Assembly (NCBI GenBank): GCA_002773945.1
Contig: PEZT01000012.1
Span: 1-59,653, forward strand
Length of the DNA stretch: 59,653 nucleotides
Source of the DNA: Candidatus Beckwithbacteria bacterium CG10_big_fil_rev_8_21_14_0_10_34_10
GTDB lineage: Bacteria > Patescibacteriota > Microgenomatia > UBA1400
Direction: 5' to 3'
Positions 12,112 through 38,066 of the stretch are shown one piece after another. How positions within the stretch are numbered: position 1 is the first letter of the stretch; every line of letters starts with the position of its first letter. The notes under the pieces are model-generated. The model was not told the DNA's origin and did no database searches. It saw only the letters and a program-made list of their open reading frames with translations. Both the position numbers and the translations under genes were made by a program.

Positions 12112-12142
12112 AACAATTATTATATAAGAAAATTAATTTCTT

Positions 12143-23268: not shown

Positions 23269-25084
23269 GATAAGTAAATTGTAACAAATTACTAGGAATT
23301 TCGGTAATAAAGCGAGAAACTTGGTTAGAAGAATACATTCCAAAATATAAACGTCTCTTGGCATAAGAAAGAAAAAGATTATTTTTGGCCCTGGTAATGG
23401 CCACATAAGCTAGTCTTCTTTCTTCTTCTAATTGTTCCTTATTTAAAAGGCTTTTGCTATGAGGAAACAGGCCTTCTTCCATTCCCACCATAAAAACAGT
23501 ATTAAATTCCAGTCCCTTAGCGGCATGAGCGGTCATGAAAGTAACCGCATTCTTCTTCTTTTTTTGATTTTTTTTGGTATTTTTAGGTAAATGATCTTGT
23601 TCTACCAAAGAAACATTTTCTAAAAACTCAACTAATTTAGGGAATTCTCTGGCGACAGAAGTTAGTTCTTTAATGTTTTCTAATCGAGTTAAGTCTGACT
23701 CGTTTTTAGGATCAAATTTTTCTAAATAGCGGGTGGCTTTTATAACCTTATTTAAAAGCTTAAAAGTGGAGTATTTATTAAGATTATTTTTTAAGTTAGA
23801 CTTTAACTTTAAGAATAATCTTAGTCTTCTTTTACCCAGTTTTTCGACCCTTTTGTAGCTTATTTTATCTTTTTCATTAAGTAAAAAACGTAAATAAGCT
23901 AAGCAGTCTTTTATTTCTTTTCTTTCATAAAAGCGGGTGCCACCAACTAGAATATAGGGGAGGCCAAGGTGAAGAAAAGATTCCTCTAGGACCCGGGATT
24001 GGGCATTAGTTCGATAAAGAACAGCAAAGTCAGAAAATTTGTCCTTACCTCCATTAACAAGAAGATTTTGGATTTGATTTATTATAAAAGAAACTTCATC
24101 TTTTTCCGATTGAGCTTCAAAGATTTTTATTTTTTCCCCTTTTTTATTTTTGGTCCAAAGTTTTAAAACCGGGTGACTGGTGTTATTGGAAATAAGACTG
24201 TGAGCGGCATCTAAAATTGTTTGTTTTGACCGATAATTTTGTTCAAGATTAATTGTTTTAAGTTGAGGAAAGTCATTTTCTAAGCGTAAAACATTTCTAA
24301 AGTTAGCTCCCCGCCAGCCATAGATTGATTGACTGGCATCACCCACAACAGTTAAGCTATTTGGTTTACTTAAAAGCTTGGTTAGCTCATATTGAGCCTG
24401 GTTGGTGTCTTGGTATTCATCAATTAGGATTTTTTGAAACCGATTTCTGTATTTATTTAGTATTTCTTTATTTTTCCAAAAAAGAAGAACAGTTTTAAAA
24501 ATTAAATCATCAAAATCTAACGCTTGATATTTTTTGAGTCTTTTTTGATACTCAGGATAAACTTTAGCGACTGTTTCTTGGAAATAACCTTGGCTAAAGC
24601 GGGGATATTCTTCTGGCCCAATTAGTTCATTTTTAGCGCCGGAGATGGCGTTTAAAACAGAATAGGGTTTGAAGCTTTTTTCCAAATCTAAATCTTTAAG
24701 AATTTCTTTTACTAATTCTGTTTGGTCTTTTTGGTCAAAAATAAGAAAGTTTACTGGAATTCCAAGTTCCTTACCTTCAATTCTTAAGAGTTTGGCGGTT
24801 AAGGAATGAAAAGTTCCGGCAAAAGGTAAGCGTTTTTTCTGCTGGTGAAAACTTAGTAGTTTTTCAATTCTTCCTTTCATTTCCAAAGCCGCTTTATTAG
24901 TAAAAGTGAGCAGGAGAATATTTTCCGGCTCAATTTTTTTTTCCAGAATAAAGTAAGCGGTTCGATAAGTTAAAACTCTTGTTTTACCAGAACCAGCGCC
25001 GGCTAAAATTAAAAGTGGCCCATTTAAAAAGGTGACTGCTTCTATTTGTTTCTGGTTTAAATCTTCTAAAAGAGATAAAGCCAT
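23255..25084 (-). CDS. pcrA: PcrA/UvrD ATP-dependent DNA helicase, compact form (start moved to ATG 25084)
   Basis: AGAGSGKT, TFTNKAA, DEYQD, NYRS, YRTNAQSR, TAHAAKGLEF, EERRLAYVAITRA. Confidence 0.93.
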   Translation of the reverse strand: MALSLLEDLNQKQIEAVTFLNGPLLILAGAGSGKTRVLTYRTAYFILEKKIEPENILLLTFTNKAALEMKGRIEKLLSFHQQKKRLPFAGTFHSLTAKLLRIEGKELGIPVNFLIFDQKDQTELVKEILKDLDLEKSFKPYSVLNAISGAKNELIGPEEYPRFSQGYFQETVAKVYPEYQKRLKKYQALDFDDLIFKTVLLFWKNKEILNKYRNRFQKILIDEYQDTNQAQYELTKLLSKPNSLTVVGDASQSIYGWRGANFRNVLRLENDFPQLKTINLEQNYRSKQTILDAAHSLISNNTSHPVLKLWTKNKKGEKIKIFEAQSEKDEVSFIINQIQNLLVNGGKDKFSDFAVLYRTNAQSRVLEESFLHLGLPYILVGGTRFYERKEIKDCLAYLRFLLNEKDKISYKRVEKLGKRRLRLFLKLKSNLKNNLNKYSTFKLLNKVIKATRYLEKFDPKNESDLTRLENIKELTSVAREFPKLVEFLENVSLVEQDHLPKNTKKNQKKKKNAVTFMTAHAAKGLEFNTVFMVGMEEGLFPHSKSLLNKEQLEEERRLAYVAITRAKNNLFLSYAKRRLYFGMYSSNQVSRFITEIPSNLLQFTYHEYP

Positions 25085-25107
25085 GTTAGAATCATAACCT
25101 AGAAACA
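25085..25107. promoter_or_regulatory. 23-bp bidirectional leaderless promoter (pcrA / LCP gene)
   Basis: Minus strand TATGAT (25096-25091)-N6-ATG 25084; plus strand TAACCT (25095-25100)-N7-ATG 25108. Confidence 0.55.
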
Positions 25108-26229
25108 ATGAAACAACAAGAAAAGAAAAATGAAGAACTGAAGGTTTATTTTTTCAGGTTTAAAAAGCGATTTTTATCTTTTTTTTTCAATCTAAAAATC
25201 CGACGAGTTTTAATTTTCCTAAGTATTTTTGTTATTATTTTTAGCTTCTTTTTTTCCCAAATTACTACTTTTTTTAAAAAAACCCTTATTGGTCCTAAAA
25301 CAGCTTTTTCTTTATTAACGGCTGATACCTCATCTTTAAATTCATCTAATGGTCGAATTAACCTTTTAGTTTTGGGTATTGGAGGTGAAAATCATGAAGC
25401 GATTGATTTAACAGATACTATTATTTTTGCCTCAATTGATAAAAACTCGGCCGATACAGTCATGCTTTCTGTTCCTAGAGATATTTGGGTTGATCCTCTA
25501 AAAACTAAAGTTAATGCTGTTTACCACTATGGTGAAGAAAGAGCGCCCGGTGAAGGATTTGTTTTAGCCAAAGATGCTATTCAAAAGGTTTTAAATCAAC
25601 CAGTTAATTATGCTATTTTAATTGATTTTGAAGGTTTTATTCGCTTAATTGATCTTCTTGAAGGAATTGAGGTTAAGGTTGATCGCTCTTTTGATGATTA
25701 TAAATATCCTATTCCTGGGAAGGAAAGAGATGAGTGTGATGGAGATTGGGAATTTAACTGTCGCTATGAACATATTCATTTTGAGGCAGGCTGGCAGCAT
25801 ATGGATGGAAAAAAATCTTTAAAATTTGTTCGTTCTCGTAATGCTAAGGGTGAGGAAGGAACTGATTTTGCCCGCTCCCAAAGACAGCAAAAATTAATTC
25901 TTGCTCTGGCTCAAAGGATTTTTTCTTACAAGACTATCTTCAGTCCCAATAAAATCAAAGCATTGAAAGAAAATTTTGGCGATCATGTTAAGTTTGATAC
26001 CCAGTTAAAAGAAGACCAGATTACTGCCTTTTTATCTTTATTTATCCGCTTTGTTAAAAATAAAAATGAGATTAGAACAATATCTTTAGATACAGGTTCT
26101 AAAGATAATCCTGGATTCTTATATAATCCACCAATAGAAGAATATGATCAATGGGTTTTAGTTCCCCGACTCAATGATTGGACTGAAGTTCATAAGTATA
26201 TTAGGGAGAAAATATATAAAGGTTATTAG
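25108..26229 (+). CDS. LytR-CpsA-Psr (LCP) family glycopolymer transferase
   Basis: N-terminal TM, NLLVLG, TDTIIF, SVPRD, FVRSR, DFARSQRQQ. Confidence 0.92.
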   Translation: MKQQEKKNEELKVYFFRFKKRFLSFFFNLKIRRVLIFLSIFVIIFSFFFSQITTFFKKTLIGPKTAFSLLTADTSSLNSSNGRINLLVLGIGGENHEAIDLTDTIIFASIDKNSADTVMLSVPRDIWVDPLKTKVNAVYHYGEERAPGEGFVLAKDAIQKVLNQPVNYAILIDFEGFIRLIDLLEGIEVKVDRSFDDYKYPIPGKERDECDGDWEFNCRYEHIHFEAGWQHMDGKKSLKFVRSRNAKGEEGTDFARSQRQQKLILALAQRIFSYKTIFSPNKIKALKENFGDHVKFDTQLKEDQITAFLSLFIRFVKNKNEIRTISLDTGSKDNPGFLYNPPIEEYDQWVLVPRLNDWTEVHKYIREKIYKGY

Positions 26230-26264
26230 TCGGGTTTTTAAATTACTGCTTATAAGAAATTTCA

Positions 26265-27509
26265 ATGTTTGAGTTTAAATTAATAATTAGAAATAAGAAG
26301 TGGTTTCTTATATTTTTTTTAGTTTTGGTTTGGTATTTACAGTCAAAAATTCCCCTTTGGAGAGGTCATTTAGAAATTGATGTTTGGGACTATTATAATA
26401 CCATCAGTCTTTTTCTAAAAAACCAATCATTTGCCAGCCTCAAAGGTAATGAAATCCTGCCTGGCGGATTATTATTTTTTCTTTTTCCCTTATTGCTTTC
26501 TATTAATAATTTTACTTATTTAAATTTTTTAAATTCATTTGTTGTCCTGAACTTGATTTTATTGCTTTTGCATTTTTTAGTTTATGAAAAAAATCTTAGT
26601 TATTTTAAGTTGTTTCCTTTTCTTTTGATTCTTTTAGTTTCTGGTCCAATTTTGTTATTTCGGTTTGAGCTTTTTGTTTCTTTAATTGTTATTTTAAGCA
26701 TTTTATTTTGGCAGAAAAAAAGGTTTTTTTTGTCAGTTTTATTATTGGGTATTGCCACTACAATTAAACTTTATCCAATTTTTTTTCTCCCTTATTTTTT
26801 ATATCTGGGTTTTATTAATTTTAAAAAAGAAAAGCAATTAACTTCCACATTTTTCTTATTGGTTTACTTCTTTTTAGGTGCTTTATTACCCCTTTTTATT
26901 TTTACAGTTTTTGGTGGTAGGATAGAACAATTCATTTATAGTTTGAGTTTTCATTCAGAAAAACCTCTTAGCATTGAGAGTATTTTTGGCTCTATTTTTA
27001 TTATTTTTAATTTGGCATTAAAAGGAATGCCCCCACCTCTTTTAGGAACCCATGGCCTTTGGGGGTTAAATTGGTCAAGTGTTAAGCCTCAGTGGTTAAA
27101 TCTTGTTTCTTTGTTTCCATTAGGTTTTTTATATTTCTATATATTTTTCAAGACTAAAATAAAAAGACAATTAAGCGGATCTATTCTTTTTCTCATTATT
27201 TTATTTTCTTTAGTTTTTTCTAAAAATCTTCACCCCCAGTATTTTTTTTGGTTTATTTTTCTAATGCCTTTTATAAAAACAAAAAAAGGGAGGGAGATAG
27301 AATTTTTCAAAATATCTTTCTTGGTTTTAATTACTATTTTACTAACCCAATGTTTATACCCACTTTTATATACCCAGTTGATTGAGGGATTTTTTAAAGA
27401 TGGTCGGGGAATAGAAATATTTTATTTGTTGCTGTTAAGAAATATTTCCTTTTTAACTTTAGTTATATTTAGTTTTCATCTGATTGGGGTTAAAAAAAAC
27501 TTGGAATAA
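26265..27509 (+). CDS. GT-C glycosyltransferase, GT87/DUF2029-like
   Basis: Multi-TM, IKLYP, HPQYFFW. Confidence 0.65.
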   Translation: MFEFKLIIRNKKWFLIFFLVLVWYLQSKIPLWRGHLEIDVWDYYNTISLFLKNQSFASLKGNEILPGGLLFFLFPLLLSINNFTYLNFLNSFVVLNLILLLLHFLVYEKNLSYFKLFPFLLILLVSGPILLFRFELFVSLIVILSILFWQKKRFFLSVLLLGIATTIKLYPIFFLPYFLYLGFINFKKEKQLTSTFFLLVYFFLGALLPLFIFTVFGGRIEQFIYSLSFHSEKPLSIESIFGSIFIIFNLALKGMPPPLLGTHGLWGLNWSSVKPQWLNLVSLFPLGFLYFYIFFKTKIKRQLSGSILFLIILFSLVFSKNLHPQYFFWFIFLMPFIKTKKGREIEFFKISFLVLITILLTQCLYPLLYTQLIEGFFKDGRGIEIFYLLLLRNISFLTLVIFSFHLIGVKKNLE

Positions 27510-27516
27510 AATACTA

Positions 27517-28773
27517 ATGAAGAAAGAGATAAAAACAGTAATTATTTTATTATTGGGGTTTTTAATAAGGTTAATACTCTCTAGTTTACCTGGTTTTAAA
27601 GCTGATACAAATGCTTGGTATGCTTGGGCTGATCGATTAGTTAATCTGCCTTTAAAAAAGTTTTATAGTTCTAATATTTGGACTCACTATACGCCAGGGT
27701 ATTTATATATTCTCTGGATTTTAGGAATAATTAAAAAAATATTCAATATTTCTGATCCAATTATTTTAAGACAATTATTTAGGTTGCCCAGCAATGTTAG
27801 TGATTTTTTAACGTCAATATTAATATTTAAAATATTTAAGAAAAAATCCTTTCCTTGGAAATATTTAGGGATCTTATATTTTTTTAATCCAGTCATAATT
27901 TTTAATTCTAGTGTTTGGGGCCAAGTAGATTCTGTATTAACTTTATTACTACTAGTATCTATTTATTTTCTTTTAAATAAAAAAATAGAATTTTCAGGTT
28001 TATTTTATGCTTTGGCTTTTTTAGTTAAACCACAAGCAGTTTTCCTAGCACCAGTATATTTTCTTTTTTTTCTAAAAAAAAAGATTTTTTCCTCTAATAA
28101 AATGCTTATAAAAACAGTTAATTTTTTATTGGTTTTTTTAATAGTAGGAATATTGATCTCCTGGCCATTTTTTCCTAAATCCAATGTTTTTGGCCTTTTT
28201 AAACTAATTAATCAAATGGGAAAAGACTATCCTTATTCTGGTTTGGGAGCTTTCAATTTATGGCAGCTTTTTGAGCCTTTTAAAAAAGACAATTTATTAG
28301 TTTATGGAGTTTCCAGATTTAATTGGGGACTTTTATTATACTCGTTTTTTACAATTATTATTAGTTTTATTCTTTGGTTTAGGAGGAAAACAAAGAATAA
28401 AGATTATTATTTAGCGGCGACCATATTCTTATTTATTTTTTTTCTTTTTCCCACTAGAATTCATGAGCGCTACTTGTTTTCCATTTTCCCTTTTTTACTG
28501 ATTAGTGCTGGTTTGTTAAAATCCCGCTTTCTAATTTTTAACTATTTAATTCTTTCTTTGTTCCACTTTTTAAACATGGTCTATATATATTGTTATTATT
28601 ATCCTAAAAATATAGAAAACCTTACTTTATCAATGAGTTCAGTTTCCCCCAAATTTATTAGTCTATTAACAATTTTTTCATTTTTTGGACTACTTTTATA
28701 TTTTTATAACCCTTTTTTATTTAAAAGGACTAAAATAAAAAAGGAGATAAAATTTTTAAAAACAAAACCATGA
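27517..28773 (+). CDS. GT-C mannosyltransferase-like membrane protein (start likely ATG 27517)
   Basis: DTNAWYAW, YTPGYLY, NSSVWGQVDS, KPQ, TRIHERY. Confidence 0.7.
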   Translation: MKKEIKTVIILLLGFLIRLILSSLPGFKADTNAWYAWADRLVNLPLKKFYSSNIWTHYTPGYLYILWILGIIKKIFNISDPIILRQLFRLPSNVSDFLTSILIFKIFKKKSFPWKYLGILYFFNPVIIFNSSVWGQVDSVLTLLLLVSIYFLLNKKIEFSGLFYALAFLVKPQAVFLAPVYFLFFLKKKIFSSNKMLIKTVNFLLVFLIVGILISWPFFPKSNVFGLFKLINQMGKDYPYSGLGAFNLWQLFEPFKKDNLLVYGVSRFNWGLLLYSFFTIIISFILWFRRKTKNKDYYLAATIFLFIFFLFPTRIHERYLFSIFPFLLISAGLLKSRFLIFNYLILSLFHFLNMVYIYCYYYPKNIENLTLSMSSVSPKFISLLTIFSFFGLLLYFYNPFLFKRTKIKKEIKFLKTKP

Positions 28774-30020
28774 AAAAGATTAAGCTAAAATTAAACAAAA
28801 CTACTATCTTGACCCTAATTTTGTTTTTGGCTTTTTTTACCAGGGTTTTTAGATTAGGACATCCAAAAGCTTATGTTTTTGATGAAGTTTATAATGCTTT
28901 TACTGCCCAAGAAATTGCCAAAGGAAATATTAAAGCTTGGGAGTGGTGGAATTCAGCGCCTCAGGGTTTAGCTTATGAATGGACTCACCCGCCTTTAGGG
29001 AAAATTATTATGGCTGGTGGTGTTTTTCTTTTTGGTGGTCAGCATTGGTGCTATCGTTTGCCAGCAGCTTTTTTTGGAACAGGAGTAATATTATTGATTT
29101 ACCTTTTGGGTAAACAATTATTTGAAGATGAAAAAATTGCTCTTTTAGCGGCTTTTTTGGCCAGCCTGGATGGACTTTTACTAGTTATGAGCAGGACAGG
29201 AATGTTGGATATTTTTTTTGTTTTCTTTCTCTTAACAACAATCCTTTTTTTTCTTAAAGGTAAGTATTTTTCTAGCGGAATTTTTTTAGGATTTTCCCTG
29301 GCTACAAAATGGATTGGTTTTTATCTTTATCCTGTTTTGGGAATTCTGATTTTAAAAGAGTTTATTTTTTTATGGAAAAACAAAAAACAAAAAACAGTTT
29401 TTAAATTATTTTTAACTTATTTATTATTTTTTGTAATCGTTCCGGGATTAATTTATTTTCTTTCTTACGGCTTTTTTTTCCAAACTGGTCATAGTTTAAG
29501 TCAATTTTGGGAATTGCAAAAACAAATGTGGGGATACCACACTAATTTAAAAGCCAGTCATGATTATCAATCTTTGGCTTTAACCTGGCCATTGATGTTT
29601 AGGCCAGTTTGGTTTTGGGTAAGATACAACAAAGACAAAATTGGTAATATCTATAATCTGGGTAATCCTTTAATCTGGTGGGCGGGCCTGACTGTTTTAC
29701 CCGTAAGCATTATTAAGGCCGCCAAAGATTTATTTAAAAGGAAAAAGTTTAAATATAGTTTTCTTATTTTCTGTTATTTTTCTTTTTGGCTGCCTTGGGC
29801 TTTTTCTCCTCGGATTATGTTTTTACATCACTATCTTTCGGCGATCCCCTTTTTGTGTTTAATTTTAGCCAATTTTTTGAGTGAGCAAAAAAAACAAATA
29901 ATTTTAACTTATTTGGTTTTGGTTGTTTTGGGGTTTATGTTTTTTTACCCCCTAAACACCGGTGTATTTATCCCTAAAGATTTAGTTAAGTTCTTTTTTT
30001 GGTTGCCTTCTTGGAAATAA
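28770..30020 (+). CDS. pmt: Polyprenyl-phosphate-mannose:protein O-mannosyltransferase (PMT, GT39)
   Basis: Loop-1 VFDEVY (DE motif), HPPLGK, SRTGMLD, HDYQS..TWPLMFRPVWF, GNPLIWW, MFLHHY. Confidence 0.85.
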   Translation: MKKIKLKLNKTTILTLILFLAFFTRVFRLGHPKAYVFDEVYNAFTAQEIAKGNIKAWEWWNSAPQGLAYEWTHPPLGKIIMAGGVFLFGGQHWCYRLPAAFFGTGVILLIYLLGKQLFEDEKIALLAAFLASLDGLLLVMSRTGMLDIFFVFFLLTTILFFLKGKYFSSGIFLGFSLATKWIGFYLYPVLGILILKEFIFLWKNKKQKTVFKLFLTYLLFFVIVPGLIYFLSYGFFFQTGHSLSQFWELQKQMWGYHTNLKASHDYQSLALTWPLMFRPVWFWVRYNKDKIGNIYNLGNPLIWWAGLTVLPVSIIKAAKDLFKRKKFKYSFLIFCYFSFWLPWAFSPRIMFLHHYLSAIPFLCLILANFLSEQKKQIILTYLVLVVLGFMFFYPLNTGVFIPKDLVKFFFWLPSWK

Positions 30021-30021
30021 A

Positions 30022-30528
30022 TTAAAGAAGAATTCCTAAAATAACCAGAATAATTCCCCCTAATCCTAAAGTAATAGTTGGGAGAGAAGTGCCAGCTTCT
30101 GGTAATTCTTCGGCGGGACTTGGTTCTTTAGGCGGTAGAGGAATAACTGGTGCTTCAGGAGATACAGCTATTGCTTGGAACTTAGGACTGGGGAGGGGAA
30201 TAATTATTGGTGATGGTAAAGGTGATGAATATACTATTGGTGAAGGTGTAGGCGTTGGTGAAGGTGTAGGCGTTGGTGAAGGTGTAGGCGTTGGTGAAGG
30301 TGTAGGCGTTGGTGAAGAAACAGTAAAACTAAGTTGGCAAGTATAATCAGTTTCTTCTAAAAACTGTTCTGGAGAAACTTCCTTTTTTGTTTTATCCAAA
30401 GATTTAGTTGTTTCTTCTGTGTTTGGGGTTTTGCTTGGCTTTTTTTTAAGAAAATAAAATATTCCTCCAATAGAAATGATGACTATTAATAAAAGAATAA
30501 CTATAGTAGTAATGTCTTTTTTTTCCAT
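30022..30528 (-). CDS. Pro/Ser/Thr-rich surface protein with N-terminal TM and C-terminal LPEAG + TM (start moved to ATG 30528)
   Basis: (SPTPTP)n tract; [11 protein letters not shown] followed by a hydrophobic C-terminus. Confidence 0.75.
30239..30317. repeat. Perfect 18-bp tandem repeat, about 4.4 copies
   Basis: GGTGAAGGTGTAGGCGTT x4 plus GGTGAAG; encodes SPTPTP on the minus strand. Confidence 0.97.
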
Positions 30529-30533
30529 TTTAT

Positions 30534-31421
30534 TTATGGGTTCCAGCCACCGGCTTGACCCCAATGAGTACAATTACTTTCATTTTCCGATGAACAAGTC
30601 CGGCACTCTATTTGATAATCACCAGTTTTCTCAATTCTATAAGCTGGAGTTGAGCCGGCAATGTTTTGCCAATTATCGGGATATTCCCAGGATTGATGAC
30701 TAATGTTTATCCGGTAATCATAATGGTGGAAATCAACATCTTTAGCTTCATAAGAACAAGTAAAAACAACTTCATCACCAAGAATTAAATTATCTGAAGG
30801 GCTTCGACTTAAATTTGAGCAAAGTAGACCTTGGTCTTTTGAAGGAACATAAAATTCGGCCTCACAATTACTACCGTCCCACCATTGACCGTAAGCATGG
30901 ATTTGAGCAATAACCACATTGTCTGATTCTTCGTCAAAGCTGTGGAAAATATAATATTCAGCCGTATCACTCTTATAATTATCACTTGGTGTAGTCACCC
31001 AATCACTGTTATTAATTTTAAAACGAGCCATATCCACTTCTTCTCCCCAGGCGCCAATTAAATAAACTTCCTCAGCTCTAATTTCATCTGGCGAAACCTT
31101 TACTCCGTCAAGGTAAAAACTTAATTGAAAACAAGAACTGGTTTCAGAGGGTGGAGCCGAAGGTGATGGGCTAGGGCTAGTTCCTGGAGAAGGTGAACTT
31201 TTTGGCTTAGGACTTTGTTTATCATCACTCCCAGGCGGAGCAGAGGGAGGAACATCAGGTGGAGGGACTTCATCTTGTTGATTATCTTGATTTTCATCAG
31301 AATAAGCATATCTAATCAGTCCATTTGATGGATTTGTTGATAAATATAAGTCTGTAATTAGAAAAGAAGAAAATATAATTAGGATTAATATTAAGCTAAC
31401 GATTTTAAATATTTTTTTCAT
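30534..31421 (-). CDS. Exported Pro-rich, Cys-containing beta-rich protein
   Basis: N-terminal TM, PPSAPP/SPSPSP linker, paired Cys in the C-terminal domains. Confidence 0.7.
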
Positions 31422-31429
31422 CTTATTTA

Positions 31430-31939
31430 TTATAATCTTTCACAGCTATTACTGGTATTAAGACAAGCACAATCTAATTTTTTAATTGTACAACCACCTT
31501 CTCCGGTACAGCTACCGTCACAACTGGCTTTTTCTAAACATTCAGTTCCATTACGGCAAGTAATACAACAAGGTCCGCCATTATAACTGTTGCCACTGAC
31601 CTGCGCTTTGGCTGTTACCCCAGTGGGAGCATTACAAGTATATTTGTAGGTTCCATTACAAATATAAAGACTACCACACATACCGGGGGTTAATGAAGGA
31701 GAGGGTGAGGGTTCGGGTAGACACATCCCGCCTCGACAATACCAATTTTCTCCGCAGCCAGCACAGTCTGATGAGCCACTGCATTCTTCCGGACATTCAT
31801 TCGGATAAGGCTCTTCATCTGGGTCTCCAATAACAAATATTTCTCCTAATTTTCCTGGATTAACAACTAAGAAATATCCTAATCCACTTAGGGTAAGGAC
31901 TAAAATTAAACCAAAAATTAAAACTAATTTGTTTTTCAT
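31430..31939 (-). CDS. Small membrane-anchored cysteine-rich protein
   Basis: N-terminal TM; 19 Cys in two clusters separated by PEPSPSP. Confidence 0.7.
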   Translation of the reverse strand: MKNKLVLIFGLILVLTLSGLGYFLVVNPGKLGEIFVIGDPDEEPYPNECPEECSGSSDCAGCGENWYCRGGMCLPEPSPSPSLTPGMCGSLYICNGTYKYTCNAPTGVTAKAQVSGNSYNGGPCCITCRNGTECLEKASCDGSCTGEGGCTIKKLDCACLNTSNSCERL

Positions 31940-33213
31940 AAGTTTGAAATAATCTCTGCTTTTTCTAATTCTTGATTAAGCCAAGCCTGAAAGTTTTCAA
32001 ATTCGCCTTTAAAAGCCTGTTCTATTTTAATAAAAGCATAACCATAATCAACCCAAAGATCTTTTTCTTCATCATTAGATTGCTTAATAATAAAGATCTC
32101 ACTTGTTTCTCCTGAATTTAGAGAAAAAAGAATTTGAGTAAATTGAGGATCTGAATGGGGTGGTTTTTTTTGAACTAGATCTTGGTAATACATTTCAAAA
32201 AGCGTTGCTTGGGGATTACCATTTATTTTTAAAAGTTCATTATCTTGCCAGGCATCATCAATTAGTCTTTTAATTCCTTCTTCATTTTTAGCCCTGTCGT
32301 GGTAGGGAGTAATTGTCCTGAGGGCTAATTGTTTTGGGTCAAGTTGTTCTTTAAAGGCTTGTTTTAAAACATCAGGACCAGCCATTTCAACTATCATTGA
32401 GCCGCCAGTTATCCAGGTTACTTTTTTCTCAATAATTTTTTCTTTTAAAGCTTGAGCTTTTAATATTTCTTGAACTTCTGGGTAAGTTTTAAGATCAGGA
32501 CTAATAGAAGTACCATAATAACTTTTTTCGGCTTTTTTTAGATCCTCAGGTGAAAAAGAAAGGTTTAATTCTTTGGCAGCTGATTTAATTATTAAACGTT
32601 CAATTAAATTTTGATTTAGAGATTCTCTAACATCATTTTTATTAACATTTGACCTTTCCAGGTAAAGCTGATAATCTAAAAAATCTTTATATTCTTCCCA
32701 ACTTAATTGTTCTTTATTAACAGAAAGAGCAAAATCACCTTTTTCTTCATAAATTGGTTCAGCTGGAAGCTGGACTGGAGTTTTTTTAAGTAAGGAAGGA
32801 GAGGTTTTAATTACAGGAGAGTCTTTTTGTTCCTCAGGAATAGATTCTTTTTTAGATGAATTAAATGATGAATAACTTATAAGTCCTAAAAAAAGAGCCA
32901 CTAAGGCTAAACCACCAAAAGTCGCAGGTTTGCTTATTTTTGTTTTTTTAGCTGGTTTTGAAAAACTAGTTTGTTCAACTGGTGGGCCAGTTGGATTTGA
33001 TGGTTCAATAATTGGGCCAAGAGTCGGTTTAGATGATTTTAAAGGTTGGTTTTTTAAGGTGGTTTTGGTTGGTTTGTTTTGGTTGGTTTCCATCCAGGGA
33101 GGTAAAGATAGTTCTTCTGGAGAAGAAGGGGAGTTATTGACCGGTGGTTTTACATTATTGTTGTTTAAATCAGACATGGTATTATTATTGTCTTTACTAG
33201 GGTTTTCTGTCAA
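31936..33213 (-). CDS. Membrane-anchored SurA/PrsA-like foldase with a low-complexity N-terminus
   Basis: TM near aa 100; LIERLIIKSAAKELNLSFS (SurA-N-like); QILFSLNSGETSEIF...YGYAFIKI (rotamase-like). Confidence 0.6.
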   Translation of the reverse strand: MTENPSKDNNNTMSDLNNNNVKPPVNNSPSSPEELSLPPWMETNQNKPTKTTLKNQPLKSSKPTLGPIIEPSNPTGPPVEQTSFSKPAKKTKISKPATFGGLALVALFLGLISYSSFNSSKKESIPEEQKDSPVIKTSPSLLKKTPVQLPAEPIYEEKGDFALSVNKEQLSWEEYKDFLDYQLYLERSNVNKNDVRESLNQNLIERLIIKSAAKELNLSFSPEDLKKAEKSYYGTSISPDLKTYPEVQEILKAQALKEKIIEKKVTWITGGSMIVEMAGPDVLKQAFKEQLDPKQLALRTITPYHDRAKNEEGIKRLIDDAWQDNELLKINGNPQATLFEMYYQDLVQKKPPHSDPQFTQILFSLNSGETSEIFIIKQSNDEEKDLWVDYGYAFIKIEQAFKGEFENFQAWLNQELEKAEIISNL

Positions 33214-34472
33214 GCTAAAATAGCCAAAACTATCAATAGAATTCCAGTTAAAGAAAATACTGTTGTTGGCCAGCTAATACCAGTTATTGGGACTCCTTCA
33301 TCAGTGGCGGGGATTGAGATTCGGGCGACTGAATTAGGACTGGATTTCAGAATTGGAGACGGGGAAGGAACCAATTCAGCTGAAGGACTGGAAGTAATAG
33401 CTGGTAATTCACTTTCACCAGCCGCTAAGACAAGAAAGTTTCTATTAATAGTTTCTTCTTTCCCAAGTTCATTTAAATAAGTTACTTGAATACTATGCTC
33501 TCCAGGAGTTAGTTTAAAAGGAGGAATTAAACTCCAATTGCCACTTTCATCCACAGTGGTTGAAGTGGAGTATGGTTCAGGGGATTGGATTTGAATTGTT
33601 ATAACTTTATTGGGTGGACCTTGTCCAAGAAAGTTTGGTTGCTGGCTATTGATTTTTTCTCCATCGGTAGTTGGATTATCAATGGTGATAATTGAGGAAT
33701 TTAAAGATGATTTAGAGGGTGAACTGGGCATTTGTTCAGCTTTATTTTCTTCTCTAAAATCATAATTTTGGTGGTCAAGGATTAAATCAGGAATTGCCGG
33801 AAAGGCATTTTTTGTTAGAATTACAGCTGATGTTTTTTTGTCTCCATTTTGGGCCTCAAATTTTAGAATAGAGGCGTCAACATCAAAACTAGCATATTCA
33901 GTTAAATCTTTTACCCGGGCTTGATTTATAAAGATGGTGAAGCGGCCGTTATTATCAGTTAAGGCAGAAAGAGAATTGATATTAGCCGAGGAGAGATAAA
34001 CAATTGTTCCTTTGGCTGGACTTTTGTCAGGGTTTAATATTTTTCCACTAATTGTTTTAGCTTCTTTTATTTTGGTTAGTTTCGGTCCGGTGCTAATACT
34101 TTTTTCCTCTCCATCGCCAATTTTAAAATAGTAGTTTTTTTGTGGGTTGAGATTTTTTAGATTAACATAGTGAGTTTGACGTTCTTCTGTTTTACCACTT
34201 TGTTGATCACGGCTGTCAGTTAAAGCTATCTCTGGAGGCGAACTTTCACCATAATAAACTATTCCTTTAGTTGGCTTCTGGGTTAACCAAGAAATTGTTA
34301 TTTGATCATCTTGGATATTAGTGTATCTAACCTCCAAGGGTAAATTAATTTCCTTTTTTTTAGAGCCCAAAAACCCCTCTTTATTAATTAGAAAAAACCC
34401 AATTAGTAATGCTATTCCTAAAAGTAAAAGAACAGCGATAGTGGGTAATTTTTTACTAAGAATTTTAGCCAT
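33210..34472 (-). CDS. Surface protein: FN3-like, carboxypeptidase-regulatory-like and Ig-like domains, C-terminal VPITG + TM
   Basis: ITISWLT...THYVNLKNLNPQKNYYF; GKILNPD; PNFLGQG...SGNWS...LTPGEHSI; GVPITGISWPT. Confidence 0.72.
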   Translation of the reverse strand: MAKILSKKLPTIAVLLLLGIALLIGFFLINKEGFLGSKKKEINLPLEVRYTNIQDDQITISWLTQKPTKGIVYYGESSPPEIALTDSRDQQSGKTEERQTHYVNLKNLNPQKNYYFKIGDGEEKSISTGPKLTKIKEAKTISGKILNPDKSPAKGTIVYLSSANINSLSALTDNNGRFTIFINQARVKDLTEYASFDVDASILKFEAQNGDKKTSAVILTKNAFPAIPDLILDHQNYDFREENKAEQMPSSPSKSSLNSSIITIDNPTTDGEKINSQQPNFLGQGPPNKVITIQIQSPEPYSTSTTVDESGNWSLIPPFKLTPGEHSIQVTYLNELGKEETINRNFLVLAAGESELPAITSSPSAELVPSPSPILKSSPNSVARISIPATDEGVPITGISWPTTVFSLTGILLIVLAILA

Positions 34473-34474
34473 TA

Positions 34475-34801
34475 TTAATTTTCCTTTTCGGAAATTTCTT
34501 TTTTAGAAACATTGTCAACTTCAGTTTCGGCAGTAGCTGTTTCTTCTTCAAACTCAAATTCAGTTATTTCTGGAACTGATTGGAGATCTTTTTCCTTAAT
34601 TTGTTTTCTTTCTTTTAAAGACTCAAGGGTTTTTAAATCAAAATTAGGATCTAGGGGTTCTATTTGTTTTTTAATATCAGCCGGAATTGATGATTTTTTG
34701 GAAGACCGGTAAATATCAAATCCAACCCAGGTTAAGAAAGCTAAAGTTGTTAAAACAACCAAGTTAAGTAAACCTTTTCCTTTATCTTTATTTTTTTTCA
34801 T
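34475..34801 (-). CDS. Bitopic membrane protein in the PilP position
   Basis: One TM, follows pilO; TWVGFDIY...IEPLDPNFD. Confidence 0.6.
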   Translation of the reverse strand: MKKNKDKGKGLLNLVVLTTLAFLTWVGFDIYRSSKKSSIPADIKKQIEPLDPNFDLKTLESLKERKQIKEKDLQSVPEITEFEFEEETATAETEVDNVSKKEISEKEN

Positions 34802-34804
34802 TAT

Positions 34805-35455
34805 TTAATTTTCTATTTTGTTTTCTAACCAAAAGGCCTGACAGTTTAAATTAAGAGTTAGTTCATTTTGACTGCTTTTGGGTGAAAAGCCAACAGATTT
34901 AATCTGAATTAACCTTTCTAGTTGCTCTAATTCTCCTAAAAATTTTCTAATATTGGTTAAAGAACCAGTAATGGTAAGATTGAACTCAAGGGAGTTAGCT
35001 GGTCCTTTGACTTGTTTTTTTTTGGTTATTTCAGTTAAGCCATCATCGATTAAGCTAAAACCTCCATAGGAAGCTGATAAAAGGGTTAATTTATTAGAAT
35101 AGGTTAGATAATTAATTTGGGCGGCTAATGTTTTAAAATCTGCTTGTTTGGGTAAGGCCATATCAATTAAATGGAGGTCTTCACTAATTTGACCATAAGT
35201 AGTTTTGGCCTTATTAAGATCAGTAATCTTTTTTTCTAAACTGTCTTTAACTCTTTGGTTTTCTTTTAAATCTTTTCTAAGATTGATAATTGTTTTTATG
35301 GTTGGTTTGACAGCAAAAAGAGCAAAAAAAGTAACCACCAAAAGGGTTAAACCGAGATTAAAAGAAGCTTTAAAAAGAGGCTTCTGGTAAAGCTCTTTTG
35401 ATTTATTTAAATAAAGTTGGTAATTTTTGCCTTCGGGCTTTAATTGTTTTTTCAT
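34805..35455 (-). CDS. pilO: Type IV pilus assembly protein PilO-like
   Basis: TM, coiled coil, MALP, LTITGSLTNIRKFLGELEQLERLIQI. Confidence 0.78.
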   Translation of the reverse strand: MKKQLKPEGKNYQLYLNKSKELYQKPLFKASFNLGLTLLVVTFFALFAVKPTIKTIINLRKDLKENQRVKDSLEKKITDLNKAKTTYGQISEDLHLIDMALPKQADFKTLAAQINYLTYSNKLTLLSASYGGFSLIDDGLTEITKKKQVKGPANSLEFNLTITGSLTNIRKFLGELEQLERLIQIKSVGFSPKSSQNELTLNLNCQAFWLENKIEN

Positions 35456-36000
35456 TTGGTTAAGCTGGCGGTAATTCTAAATTTTAAGCCTGGATCTTTT
35501 TCTCCACCAGAGGTAACACTTCCTAGATCAATTTTTTCAAAGGAATCATTTGATTTTAATCCACTCAAAAGAGTAGCTAGGCCAGCATTGGATAAGCTGG
35601 TGCCTGTAAAAGAAACACTGTTTTCATTTAAGTCTAAGTTGTCAAAAACCACTTCTAGGGGAGTGAGTTGGGTTAATTCATTAATAATTGAGGAGAATTC
35701 AGTTTCACCATTTTGAATAGAACTAACTGATTTTAGGCGTTTTTGGACAAAGCGGACTTCATTTTCTAGTTCAGCTGAAGCAATAACAATTGCCATTTTT
35801 TCCTCTATTTCTCCCCGAAGGTCATTAAGGTCTTGGTCGAGTTTAAATCTTAAGACAAAAATAATAATGACAATTAATTCAGTAAAAATAACAATGTAGC
35901 GGCCAATATTTAAAGACCACTTTAAAATTTTTCCAAAAGCGTTTTTTTCTAATTCGCTTTCTTTTAATAAGAAATTGATTGATTTTTTTTGGGCAGCCAC
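35452..36000 (-). CDS. pilN: Type IV pilus assembly protein PilN-like
   Basis: INFL motif, TM, coiled coil, LTPLEVVFDNL...VSFTG...FKI; GTG start 6 nt after TATACT. Confidence 0.78.
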   Translation of the reverse strand: MAAQKKSINFLLKESELEKNAFGKILKWSLNIGRYIVIFTELIVIIIFVLRFKLDQDLNDLRGEIEEKMAIVIASAELENEVRFVQKRLKSVSSIQNGETEFSSIINELTQLTPLEVVFDNLDLNENSVSFTGTSLSNAGLATLLSGLKSNDSFEKIDLGSVTSGGEKDPGLKFRITASLTK

Positions 36001-36052
36001 AGTTAAAGTATAAGATTTTAGTCAGGCAATTGTAAAGAGGAAGGAATAGTAA

Positions 36053-36292
36053 TTAGTCTTTTTTTATAAGTTTTCCCAACCTTGATTTTAAGCGGGAGGC
36101 CTTGTTTTTATGAATTAGATTTTTTTTTACTGCTCGATCCAGATAAGAATAAACCCTTTTTAAGGCTGTTAGACTTGGCTTCTGGCGCATTTCTTTTATG
36201 GCCGATCTATATTTTGTTCTATTAACCTTATTGACTTCTGTTCTTCTTTTATCTCTTTTTAAGGCTTTAGTAGCTGATTTTGTAATTGGCAT
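36053..36292 (-). CDS. rpsT: 30S ribosomal protein S20
   Basis: MPITKSATKALKRDKRR...LIHKNKASRLKSRL. Confidence 0.96.
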   Translation of the reverse strand: MPITKSATKALKRDKRRTEVNKVNRTKYRSAIKEMRQKPSLTALKRVYSYLDRAVKKNLIHKNKASRLKSRLGKLIKKD

Positions 36293-36386
36293 AATTGTTT
36301 TTTTTAATTAAAATTATGAATTAATAGTTTCTGATTATATTATTTTCCTCTTTAAAATACAAGTTAATTTCAATATACTATATCCC

Positions 36387-38066
36387 ATGAAGGCAAAAAA
36401 CAATATTTTAAGAAACGGTGCCTTAATTTTGTTGAGCCGGCAAACAAACATTCTTTCAGCGGCAACAGTAATTATGGTAAACGTGGCTGCTTCTAGAATA
36501 TTAGGTTTAATTAGAGACCGCCTTTTAGCTTCTTATTTTGGTTCTTCTGCCACTTTGGGAGTTTATTTTGCTGCTTTTCGCTTACCGGATATGATTTTTC
36601 AACTTCTAGTCATGGGAGCTTTGGCGACTGCTTTTATACCGGTGATGACTTCCTTGATTTCTAAAAAGAAAAAGGAGCTTGCTTGGCAGGTGGCCTCTTC
36701 GGTTTTAAATATAGGTTTGGTGGGGTTTTTTGTTTTGTCCATTTTTATTTGTTTTTATGCTAAAAAGTTATCTCAATTAATTGCCCCGGGTTTTAATCAG
36801 GAAGAGTTAGTGTTGATGGCTAATTTAACTAGGGTCATGATTGTAGCTCAGTTTTTCTTCATTTTGTCAAATTATTTAACAGGAATTTTACAATCTTTTA
36901 AGCGTTTTTTAATTCCTGCTTTAGCCCCAGTTCTTTATAATTTGGGGATTATTGTTGGGATTATTTTTCTATCGCCAAAATTAGGAATTTATGGCCCGGC
37001 TTTAGGAGTTATTATTGGAACTTTTCTTCACTTTATTATTCAGCTGCCTCAAGCAAAGAGCTTAGGATTAAAATATCGTCTGACTTTTAATTGGAGGCAG
37101 AAAGAGGTAAAAGAAATCGGTCGGTTGATGTTGCCTCGGACAATTGGCTTGGCTGTTTCTCAAATAGATTATACGGTTGATGTTGCTTTGGCTTCTTTGA
37201 TTTCTGCCAGTTCATTAATTTATCTTAATTTTGCTCAACATTTGCAATTATTGCCAGTTGGTCTTTTTGGAGCCACTATTGCTCAGGCTGCTTTGCCAAC
37301 CCTGGCAGAAGAGGGAGATAAAAAGGATTTGGGTAATTTTAAGAAAACTCTTTCCACTTCTTTTCAACAAATTATATTTTTAGTAATGCCCTTTTCGGTT
37401 TTGCTCATAATCTTGCGGGTTCCAGTAGTGAGATTGGTTTTTGGAGCGGCTCGTTTTGATTGGCAAGCAACCCTTTTAACTGGGCAGGTGCTGGCTTTTT
37501 TTAGTCTGTCTTTGTTTGCTCAGGCAGCGGTTCACATTTTAGCCAGGGCTTTTTACGCCCTTCGGGATACAAAAACCCCGGTTTTTATTGGTGCCTTGAG
37601 TGTTTTAACTAATGTTTTTACTAGTATTTACTTTATTTTAGTTTTAAAACTGCCAGTTTGGGGTTTGGGACTATCAACTTCAATTGCTAATATATTAAAC
37701 GCTTCCCTTTTACTTATTTTTTTAAATAAAAAAGTTAAGGGATTTAAAGAACAAAGACTTTTCCACTCCAGTTTAAAAATATTTATTGTTTCTTTTATTA
37801 CTGCTTTTGCCCTTTATATTCCGATGAAATTACTTGATCAATTGGTTTTTGATACTACTAGAGTGGGGGGGCTTTTATTGTTAACTATTATTGCTTCTTT
37901 GTTTGGATTTGCCGTTTATTTTTTCCTAAGTTGGCTTTTTAGAGTGGAAATATTTATGAGTTTTTCTAAACTTTTTGAAAGAGCAGAAGATTTCCAAAAA
38001 ATACTCCGCGGAAAAAGCTTAGAACCGATTGAGGTCCATGATGAATCCACTCAATTCCATTCGTAA
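36387..38066 (+). CDS. murJ: Lipid II flippase MurJ (MviN)
   Basis: SRILGLIRD, AAFRLPD, QLLPVGLFG, RAFYALRDTKTP. Confidence 0.93.
   Translation: MKAKNNILRNGALILLSRQTNILSAATVIMVNVAASRILGLIRDRLLASYFGSSATLGVYFAAFRLPDMIFQLLVMGALATAFIPVMTSLISKKKKELAWQVASSVLNIGLVGFFVLSIFICFYAKKLSQLIAPGFNQEELVLMANLTRVMIVAQFFFILSNYLTGILQSFKRFLIPALAPVLYNLGIIVGIIFLSPKLGIYGPALGVIIGTFLHFIIQLPQAKSLGLKYRLTFNWRQKEVKEIGRLMLPRTIGLAVSQIDYTVDVALASLISASSLIYLNFAQHLQLLPVGLFGATIAQAALPTLAEEGDKKDLGNFKKTLSTSFQQIIFLVMPFSVLLIILRVPVVRLVFGAARFDWQATLLTGQVLAFFSLSLFAQAAVHILARAFYALRDTKTPVFIGALSVLTNVFTSIYFILVLKLPVWGLGLSTSIANILNASLLLIFLNKKVKGFKEQRLFHSSLKIFIVSFITAFALYIPMKLLDQLVFDTTRVGGLLLLTIIASLFGFAVYFFLSWLFRVEIFMSFSKLFERAEDFQKILRGKSLEPIEVHDESTQFHS

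Follow-up and report, generated by a model that had tools for sequence, protein, structure and literature searches.

A GT39 protein O-mannosyltransferase homologue and its GT-C partner gene beside a pilN-pilO surface-protein operon in a Beckwithbacteria genome

Glycosyltransferase (GT) family GT39, the protein O-mannosyltransferases (PMT), is present in more than 3,800 bacterial genomes yet has been described as "minimally examined" (PMC11727336). Work on O-mannosylation of proteins by GT39 enzymes has so far covered only a few Actinobacteria and one Firmicute. When the GT39 gene Cbes_1864 of Caldicellulosiruptor bescii, which is located close to the presumed acceptor gene celA, is deleted, secreted enzymes that have Thr/Pro linkers are no longer glycosylated (PMC6151902). 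In Actinomyces oris, LcpA, an enzyme of the LCP (LytR-CpsA-Psr) family, glycosylates the sortase substrate GspA (PMC6381275). In the literature library searched, no paper links GT39/PMT to the candidate phyla radiation (CPR) or Patescibacteria. Described here is a locus with a PMT homologue in Candidatus Beckwithbacteria bacterium CG10_big_fil_rev_8_21_14_0_10_34_10. The window, i.e. the whole stretch of DNA analyzed, is 59,653 nt in length (PEZT01000012.1) and the feature under study is at positions 25108–36000. Four plus-strand genes (LCP, GT87a, GT87b and PMT) meet a minus-strand operon that encodes type IV pilus platform and surface proteins. The window is contig C15 of a 31-contig, 1.03-Mb genome with an estimated completeness of about 97%. 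The G+C content is 31–38%.

PMT (28770–30020, plus strand) encodes a 416 amino acid (aa) homologue of the GT39 protein O-mannosyltransferases. The sequence displays the PF02366 domain (E-value = 2e-20) and PF16192, the C-terminal four-transmembrane domain PMT_4TMC (E-value = 1e-24, 87.7 bits with a cut-off of 32.4). No other protein of the genome matches PF16192, and PMT is its only GT39 gene among approximately 26 GT-C genes. Among the control genomes, PF16192 is seen in Corynebacterium only. The DE motif at D38-E39 (F37-D38-E39-V40-Y41, FDEVY) is invariant across 21 homologues and aligns with the catalytic VFDEVH of yeast Pmt1 (PDB 6p25, E-value = 5e-13). The motif is thus intact, as a prior reading of the DNA made without database searches (the sequence-only reading) had it. 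A Pfam search of PMT gave no match to the MIR domain that is found in loop 5 of eukaryotic PMTs. To our knowledge the characterized bacterial Pmt enzymes also are without MIR, therefore its absence does not exclude membership in the bacterial GT39 group. The closest homologues have 46–55% identity and are from metagenome-assembled genomes (MAGs) whose labels are Patescibacteria UBA1400, Beckwithbacteria, Amesbacteria and Daviesbacteria, which places the bacterium within the Microgenomates group of the CPR.

GT87b (27484–28773, plus strand) is located immediately upstream and its end overlaps the start of PMT by 4 bp. It encodes a predicted GT-C-fold glycosyltransferase (ALG6/PIG-M/PimE-like) and displays PF09594 (E-value = 7e-7, 29.6 bits with a cut-off of 25) together with weak PMT_2 and Alg6/8 matches. 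Translation may in fact begin with the ATG at 27517. An AlphaFold2 (AF2) model built from 35 orthologues has a pLDDT of 89.6 and a pTM of 0.90. The top Foldseek match of this model is yeast ALG6 (6snh, E-value = 6e-7, TM-score 0.69), followed by GPI mannosyltransferase I (GPI-MT-I), ALG9, ALG3, ArnT and PimE. PimE is only at rank 14 (TM-score 0.50), thus the nearest structure is ALG6 and not PimE. All of these enzymes use lipid-phosphate-linked sugars at the outer face of the membrane. The modelled GT-C fold of GT87b is secure.

The pairing of the two genes was followed in 80 loci around PMT homologues (L001–L080), onto which all of the window genes were mapped. GT87b adjoins PMT in 47 of the 80 loci, and in 12 loci (e.g. 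L001:8747–11266) the two are one open reading frame (ORF) of about 800–840 aa that displays GT87-like, PMT and PMT_4TMC domains in a single chain by Pfam analysis. In a class-wide sample of 301 Microgenomatia genomes, GT39 is present in 91, and 23 of these 91 GT39 genes are within ORFs of at least 790 aa. The comparison supports GT87b and PMT as a functional unit in which GT87b would be the obligate partner of PMT. For such a fusion, the division into initiator and extender that the sequence-only reading proposed is the simplest reading.

GT87a (26265–27509, plus strand) encodes a putative second GT-C-type membrane glycosyltransferase, GT87/PIG-M-like. The assignment is borderline: PF09594 has an E-value of 2.4e-6 (27.9 bits with a cut-off of 25) and PIG-M is a weak match (E-value = 3e-4). 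GT87a is found in just 12 of the 80 loci and is a clade-specific addition. Neither GT87a nor GT87b has a match in a PDB sequence search, and the narrow Pfam passes leave membership of both in the GT87 family insecure. The two are not paralogues, as their mutual BLASTP E-value is 0.33.

PMT terminates with TAA at 30018–30020, base 30021 is free, and TTA at 30022–30024 is the stop codon of the first minus-strand gene. Thus the two gene sets are tail-to-tail with a 1-bp gap. This geometry, and the presence of every gene that had been listed at its proposed position, agree with the sequence-only reading. Positions 36000 to 30022 of the minus strand contain eight genes that overlap or are at most 8 bp apart and therefore appear to form one tight operon. 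A promoter/terminator scan of positions 24800–36500 gave the same counts as shuffled sequence, and operon boundaries are not readable from it.

The gene that converges on PMT (30022–30528, minus strand) encodes an exported PT-repeat "stalk" protein of 168 aa, or of 183 aa from an alternative TTG start at 30573. The protein has a hydrophobic segment at the N-terminus, and 48 of its residues fall within windows that are at least 70% Pro/Ser/Thr (PST). Its tail reads ...EELPEAG followed by a hydrophobic transmembrane (TM) helix. Its positional equivalents in relatives end in LP(E/D/S/V)(A/T)G and a TM segment. A perfect tandem repeat of 18 bp in 4.5 copies (30237–30317, 100% matches) encodes the TPTPSP units. 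The copies are identical, which suggests a recent expansion and possible copy-number variation.

The next gene (30534–31421, minus strand) encodes an exported protein of 295 aa that has an SP-rich stalk at the N-terminus and an Ig-like domain with Cys (weak Big_15) at the C-terminus. It has 35 residues in a PST tract, seven Cys, and QIECRTC near its C-terminal end. Orthologues are detected by tblastn in eight loci, and 12 relatives share the Cys motif of the C-terminus. This protein and its orthologues (e.g. L001:12014–13222, L003:12756–13634, L036:7241–8740) are a fast-evolving Cys-rich family. They have in common a C-terminal domain of about 100 aa that ends Y.VQC(R/K/Q)VC...CT.WG and has weak Big_15/CARDB matches only. 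The rest of the sequence is highly variable in length and in Cys count, which ranges from 7 to 36.

The third protein of interest is encoded at 33210–34472 (minus strand), has FN3, CarboxypepD_reg and Big_13 type domains with a PS-rich linker, and is a core member of the pilN-pilO operon throughout the class. Pfam matches are Pur_ac_phosph_N (E-value = 4e-11), Big_13 (7e-9) and CarboxypepD_reg (2e-6). This FN3/Ig protein ends ...GVPITG plus a TM helix, and its orthologues in relatives end (V/I/M)Px(T/S/A)G, TM and a basic tail. The LPEAG and VPITG ends of the window are both without a basic tail. In orthologues the signals read LPETG, LPEAG, LPVAG or VPxTG, and the genome has two sortase genes. 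For these reasons the PT-repeat protein and the FN3/Ig protein are probably sortase substrates. The sortase genes are at C8:676–1374 and C30:6782–7573. The former is directly followed, within C8:676–2125, by a gene for a 217-aa exported protein that ends TYPEAG, TM and KKK, which speaks for xPEAG being a sortase signal of this bacterium. A GT2 gene (448 aa) and a GT-C gene (515 aa) are found a few genes further on in the C8 region.

With moderate confidence, the plus-strand genes may be read as an extracytoplasmic O-glycosylation module that depends on lipid-linked sugar and that would favour, though not exclusively, the neighbouring stalk proteins. Polyprenyl phosphate would be charged with a hexose, probably mannose derived from GDP-mannose, by a Dpm1/AglJ-like GT2 encoded elsewhere in the genome. 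Once the lipid-linked sugar is flipped, GT39 would place the first sugar on Ser/Thr of unfolded Pro/Ser/Thr-rich tracts as they leave the Sec channel. The ALG6-like partner GT87b, plus GT87a in this clade, would then extend the glycan. The preferred acceptor sites would be in the stalk regions, i.e. those of the PT-repeat protein with the LPEAG end and of the Cys-rich Ig-like protein with the SP stalk, along with the PS linker in the FN3/Ig protein. The two acceptors with sortase-type signals would probably be fixed to the wall by one of the two sortases. The surface proteins are in the same operon as PilN-PilO and should therefore at least be co-expressed with the type IV pilus platform.

Of 30 loci in the clade with the same architecture, 24 have a PST-rich exported protein no more than three genes away from PMT, and the other six are truncated. 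PST-rich exported proteins are encoded by 40 of 153 genes (26%) within three positions of PMT versus 13 of 259 (5%) further away. The gene that converges on PMT in this clade almost always encodes a signal/anchor, a PST-rich tract, often Cys-rich, and then LPxAG plus TM. PMT or GT-C genes stay beside PST-rich/Cys-rich genes in three different arrangements. In Amesbacteria (L036, L078, L040, L042) PMT follows the LPxAG gene after 12–51 bp on the same strand and so continues the pilN-pilO-FN3 series. Locus L076 has GT87a and GT87b, coupled by overlap, behind Cys-rich and LPVAG genes, and PMT converges on them. Locus L079 (DASWTW010000186.1, labelled Herpetosiphonaceae, 60.6% G+C) is outside the CPR; its GT39 is 38% identical and converges on a gene for an anchored protein of 545 aa, about 200 residues of which are in PST tracts. 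The placing of an enzyme gene next to that of its candidate substrate may be independent in L079. In a wider family sample of 20 loci from 14 families, PMT is beside PST-rich exported proteins in about six (f10, f48, f24, f63, f54 and f1, that of the window). By comparison with relatives the adjacent proteins are likely, though unproven, sugar acceptors.

The titles of many of the close-relative MAG records among L001–L080 read "uncultured Pseudomonadales/Gammaproteobacteria bacterium", and one reads "Woesearchaeota". Gene content and synteny are plainly Microgenomates-like, thus these public titles look wrong.

A different explanation of the layout is that the genes are neighbours by descent only, within a slow-rearranging block, and that GT87b plus PMT is a general secretome enzyme or one with a few unrelated targets. 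A number of observations fit this explanation or weigh against a preference for the neighbouring proteins. About 20–30 loci keep the block FemAB-UvrD-LCP-(GT87)-PMT-[island]-FN3-small-PilO-PilN-S20-MurJ-LepA-HrcA, the island being the set of PST-rich and Cys-rich surface-protein genes. As the synteny extends to the housekeeping genes on both sides, the adjacency could be inherited and not selected; nor are the loci compared phylogenetically independent. In approximately 45–50 loci, mostly of Daviesbacteria, the GT87b-PMT pair is found alone with no pilus genes, and PMT has a PST-rich neighbour in only two of the 50 loci of other architecture. PMT is linked to the pilus/surface operon in none of about 45 Daviesbacteria loci and is located elsewhere in about eight of the 14 sampled families, including f2 of the window's own order. 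In the genome itself only two of about 15 strongly PST-rich ORFs abut PMT, the other 13 being elsewhere. The island of L125 is present with no glycosyltransferase alongside. The orientation in the window is convergent, therefore the two operons are not co-transcribed. PST tracts ahead of sortase-type signals also are ordinary wall-spanning spacers. Finally, PMT scores only 107 bits (E-value = 1e-30) against the NCBIfam equivalog NF058602, which has a cut-off of 800, thus the sugar and acceptor specificity of PMT is not inferable from this match.

The linkage of the two operons that had been proposed is therefore partly sustained. They are unlinked in many relatives, i.e. Daviesbacteria and about eight of the 14 families, which the sequence-only reading had itself named as a refuting outcome, and so PMT cannot be dedicated to this operon. 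What stands is a neighbourhood that survives rearrangement and is enriched in this clade. The adjacency outlasts at least three local rearrangements, two of them with same-strand overlap or short-gap coupling, and the same pairing is found in L079. In Daviesbacteria (L105–L116) LCP converges directly on the gene for a short FN3 protein that is followed by small-PilO-PilN-S20. The slot has neither island nor glycosyltransferases, i.e. both are missing together, and where GT39 is absent in other genomes, further membrane modules of glycosylation type fill the slot. The joint gain and loss of island and glycosyltransferases argues against descent alone, an explanation that is considered unlikely, if far from negligible. 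The Daviesbacteria FN3 protein is about 310 aa in length and has no Big_13, PST linker or anchor. It ends with a dockerin/EF-hand-like sequence, ...DLNxDGxVDxKDLDLM, in place of the anchor, which suggests a different attachment.

LCP (25108–26229, plus strand) encodes a predicted LytR-CpsA-Psr glycopolymer phosphotransferase (PF03816, E-value = 8e-31; TIGR00350, E-value = 4e-26, 92 bits with a cut-off of 62). Its translation has an N-terminal hydrophobic segment, and tblastn shows a single copy in the genome. LCP had been proposed to be a partner of PMT. However, it keeps its place by the pilN-pilO-FN3 operon with or without PMT, Daviesbacteria included, and converges on this operon even where GT87/PMT are elsewhere. 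LCP thus is a constant neighbour of the pilus-platform operon and not a gene of the PMT module. By analogy it may ligate a wall polymer, or may glycosylate a sortase substrate as does LcpA of A. oris.

The normal role of LCP enzymes, ligation of glycopolymers to peptidoglycan (NCBIfam TIGR00350), opens a further explanation: LCP and the three GT-C enzymes could make and attach a non-protein envelope glycopolymer, e.g. a lipomannan-like lipoglycan or a wall polysaccharide, in an actinobacterial-like manner, the protein operon being irrelevant. GT87/ALG6-like GT-C enzymes known so far act in extension of lipid-linked glycans, and the genome is rich in polysaccharide genes, with 32 GT2 genes, the approximately 26 GT-C genes and a UbiA gene at 8230–9165. 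However, the PF02366 and PF16192 pair is known from protein O-mannosyltransferases only, and outside this clade LCP is not linked to PMT. Fusion of GT87b to a protein-modifying GT39 argues for a common acceptor. Moreover, an LCP enzyme can act on protein, as LcpA does on GspA (PMC6381275). A glycopolymer role for the whole set is thus improbable.

PilN (35452–36000, minus strand; PF05137, E-value = 2e-11, 44.1 bits with a cut-off of 22.8) and PilO (34805–35455, minus strand; PF04350, E-value = 2e-10, 41.4 bits with a cut-off of 22) are predicted bitopic type IV pilus alignment proteins. Their genes overlap by 4 bp and are the only copies in the genome, with pilM, pilB and pilT on other contigs (C11, C25). 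The proximity of the pilus platform raises the question of whether GT39 glycosylates type IV pilins or the PilN/PilO/FN3 platform, the PST-rich island proteins being unglycosylated wall-spanning stalks. Pilin O-glycosylation is common in other bacteria and is predicted, not shown, for Saccharibacteria pilins (PMC11623550). PST-rich exported ORFs also are found near the pilM/pilB/pilT cluster of contig C11, and in four loci (L015, L038, L039, L054) PMT abuts the FN3 gene with no island between. However, known pilin glycosylation is by PglL/TfpO/TfpW-type enzymes and not GT39. The pilin genes of this genome are not close to PMT, and Daviesbacteria retain pilN-pilO and PMT, but apart. Pilins or the platform as the main targets are considered very improbable.

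The remaining three genes of the minus-strand operon have few or no family matches. The gene at 34475–34801 (minus strand) encodes a small bitopic protein of 108 aa with an acidic C-terminus. No match is found in Pfam or NCBIfam at E ≤ 0.1, and the protein is kept after pilO in relatives, Daviesbacteria included. It had been termed a PilP-position protein, which holds for position; there is no similarity to PilP (PF04351) in sequence.

A bitopic membrane protein of 425 aa is encoded at 31936–33213 (minus strand) and has a disordered P/S/N-rich N-terminus, one TM segment and an outer domain of about 300 aa. Its identification as a SurA/PrsA-like foldase, which formed part of the earlier proposal, remains unconfirmed. 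The sole match is SurA_N_3 below threshold (E-value = 0.0047, 17 bits with a cut-off of 27), and no rotamase domain is found by Pfam. A search of 5.8 billion proteins yields three homologues, none with a Pfam domain. An AF2 model from this four-sequence alignment has a pLDDT of 46.9 and is unusable. Proteins encoded at the corresponding place in relatives are not similar to it.

A small exported protein of 169 aa with 19 Cys and an N-terminal hydrophobic segment is encoded at 31430–31939 (minus strand). It has no match in Pfam or NCBIfam, and none by tblastn in the 80 loci. Three exported proteins with SP/TP linkers had been proposed, but this one has only about 11 PST residues; the other two, at 30022–30528 and 30534–31421, fit the description. 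Neither tblastn nor phmmer detects matches to the PT-repeat, 19-Cys and 425-aa proteins in the 80 loci or among positional equivalents. These proteins thus appear to be conserved in kind and position and not in alignable sequence.

Genomes without GT39 keep the order pilN-pilO-small-FN3-Cys-rich(PST)-LPETG and continue on the same strand with other membrane modules. One module consists of a FAD oxidoreductase gene and a gene for a membrane protein (TIGR03662/DUF2298, "YYY") with a length of about 650 aa and 9–13 TM segments. A second consists of a FAD oxidoreductase, a UbiA protein similar to decaprenyl-phosphate phosphoribosyltransferase, and two or three PMT_2 GT-C enzymes. The island of L125 is next to neither module. 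In L117–L122 (genomes G121, G232, G296, G082, G057 and G219) the protein that accompanies YYY is similar to FAD amine oxidases/phytoene desaturases (PRK07233, E-value = 5e-110). The two form a conserved pair of no known function at the place of PMT. DUF2298 is without a function so far, and so the argument from replacement is only as strong as the UbiA/PMT_2 cases, a point that also weighs against the preferred reading of an O-glycosylation module for the neighbouring proteins.

A broader proposal is that Microgenomatia keep a dedicated "glycosylation slot" between LCP and pilN-pilO-FN3, filled by interchangeable membrane modules that use lipid-linked sugars. The modules would be the ALG6-like/GT39 fusion with two active sites, the FAD oxidoreductase plus YYY/DUF2298, and a polyprenyl-phosphate-ribose synthase plus PMT_2 GT-C enzymes, and their targets for glycosylation would be sortase-anchored Cys-rich/PST-stalk proteins. 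These stalk proteins and the FN3/Ig protein would jointly be the wall-spanning or adhesive outer part of a secretin-less type IV pilus machine in episymbiont-like bacteria. Taken as a whole, this proposal is unlikely.

The window has a second envelope-glycan cluster at 8230–13630 (minus strand), which consists of UbiA, a GT4 (MraY/WecA-type), a 135-aa ORF, a PMT_2 GT-C and a GT2. Its UbiA scores 226.9 bits, with 234 the equivalog cut-off for decaprenyl-phosphate phosphoribosyltransferase. The cluster resembles the sets of lipid-linked pentose donor and GT-C genes in the PMT slot of L123 and L124. A second surface-protein cluster is located at C1:49341–53796 (minus strand). It encodes a 227-aa PST-rich protein that ends IPVTG, TM and KK, as well as two exported proteins that contain PST and are rich in Cys (16 and 30 residues). 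The cluster has no GT39 gene nearby.

Genes for the supply of a sugar donor are found elsewhere in the genome. A ManC-like guanylyltransferase (TIGR01479, E-value = 2e-68) is without the isomerase half, and two further genes are similar to mannose-1-phosphate guanylyltransferases. At least five GT2 genes, mostly on contig C6, are Dpm1/AglJ/PpgS/GtrB-like. The search for a polyprenol-phosphate-mannose synthase, suggested by the sequence-only reading, thus produced candidates, but none reaches an equivalog cut-off or is near PMT, and no one GT2 can be assigned as the synthase. A route from GDP-mannose to polyprenyl-phosphate-mannose is plausible from the gene content. In addition to the GT2 and PMT_2-type GT-C genes, the 1.03-Mb genome has seven sugar-1-phosphate nucleotidyltransferase genes. 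The majority of the genes of these three kinds are in one long same-strand array on contig C6 (about 3–74 kb), with others on C4 and C1. Extracytoplasmic glycosylation takes an unusually large share of this tiny genome.

Among the closest described systems is actinobacterial O-mannosylation, e.g. Rv1002c of M. tuberculosis and Cg1014 of C. glutamicum. It shares with the window a GT39 without MIR, the loop-1 DE motif and the C-terminal four-TM domain. Also similar are a lipid-phospho-sugar donor from a Dpm1-like GT2 (Ppm1 there, candidates here), the expected acceptors, i.e. Ser/Thr in Pro-rich unstructured tracts of exported proteins, and GT-C enzymes for extension, which are of GT87 type such as PimE in Actinobacteria. 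However, the similarity is distant, as seen from the 107 bits against the 800-bit equivalog cut-off, and the bacterium here belongs to the CPR and has only about 1 Mb of genome. By structure, its GT-C partner comes closest to ALG6, and many relatives have this partner fused to GT39. The GT39 gene is without a ppm1 neighbour and is located beside a pilN-pilO operon and sortase-type substrates.

Cbes_1864 of C. bescii also is a non-actinobacterial GT39 encoded near presumed acceptors (PMC6151902). The acceptors have alternating Thr/Pro linkers, as does the PT-repeat protein, and Cbes_1864 alone accounts for glycosylation of the secretome. Unlike the stalk proteins, which appear to be sortase-anchored and are encoded in a pilus-platform operon, the C. 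bescii acceptors are secreted multidomain glycoside hydrolases. Cbes_1864 has 556 aa with a carbohydrate-binding-like domain in loop 1 and has no fused second GT-C.

In the LcpA-GspA-SrtA system of A. oris an LCP enzyme and a sortase act together with a glycoprotein that is anchored to the wall, and LCP in the window is similarly located by an operon of sortase-type substrates. However, the A. oris system is without GT39, GT-C or a link to pilN-pilO, and for the LCP of the window a role on proteins is only a possibility. With the PilM-PilN-PilO subcomplex of monoderms the locus shares PilN and PilO at the Pfam level, encoded as an overlapping pair, and pilM, pilB, pilT and pilC-type genes are present elsewhere in the genome. 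It differs in that pilM is outside the operon and pilO is followed by genes for the small bitopic protein and for an FN3/Ig protein that has an anchor of sortase type. Some lineages have Cys-rich/PST-rich surface proteins after these. None of these additional proteins belongs to described type IV pilus systems.

The eukaryotic Pmt1-Pmt2 complex (PDB 6p25) is similar in the GT39 fold family, in the catalytic DE motif and in an obligate second multi-pass partner. The partner here is of a different GT-C family and not a GT39 paralogue, MIR domains are missing, and the donor would be on bacterial polyprenyl phosphate and not on dolichyl phosphate.

In relation to these systems, three features of the locus and its relatives appear to be new: the predicted fused enzyme with two GT-C parts, the recurrent, non-universal pairing with putative sortase-type stalk proteins appended to pilN-pilO, and what looks like an exchange of membrane modules within a single slot. 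The fusion is a natural, predicted O-glycosylation enzyme with two active sites for structural study. In several families GT39 adjoins a small defined set of candidate acceptors, a testable candidate enzyme-substrate pair. The locus also offers a route into the surface biology of ultra-small bacteria, where pili, sortase-anchored proteins and glycans presumably mediate host contact.

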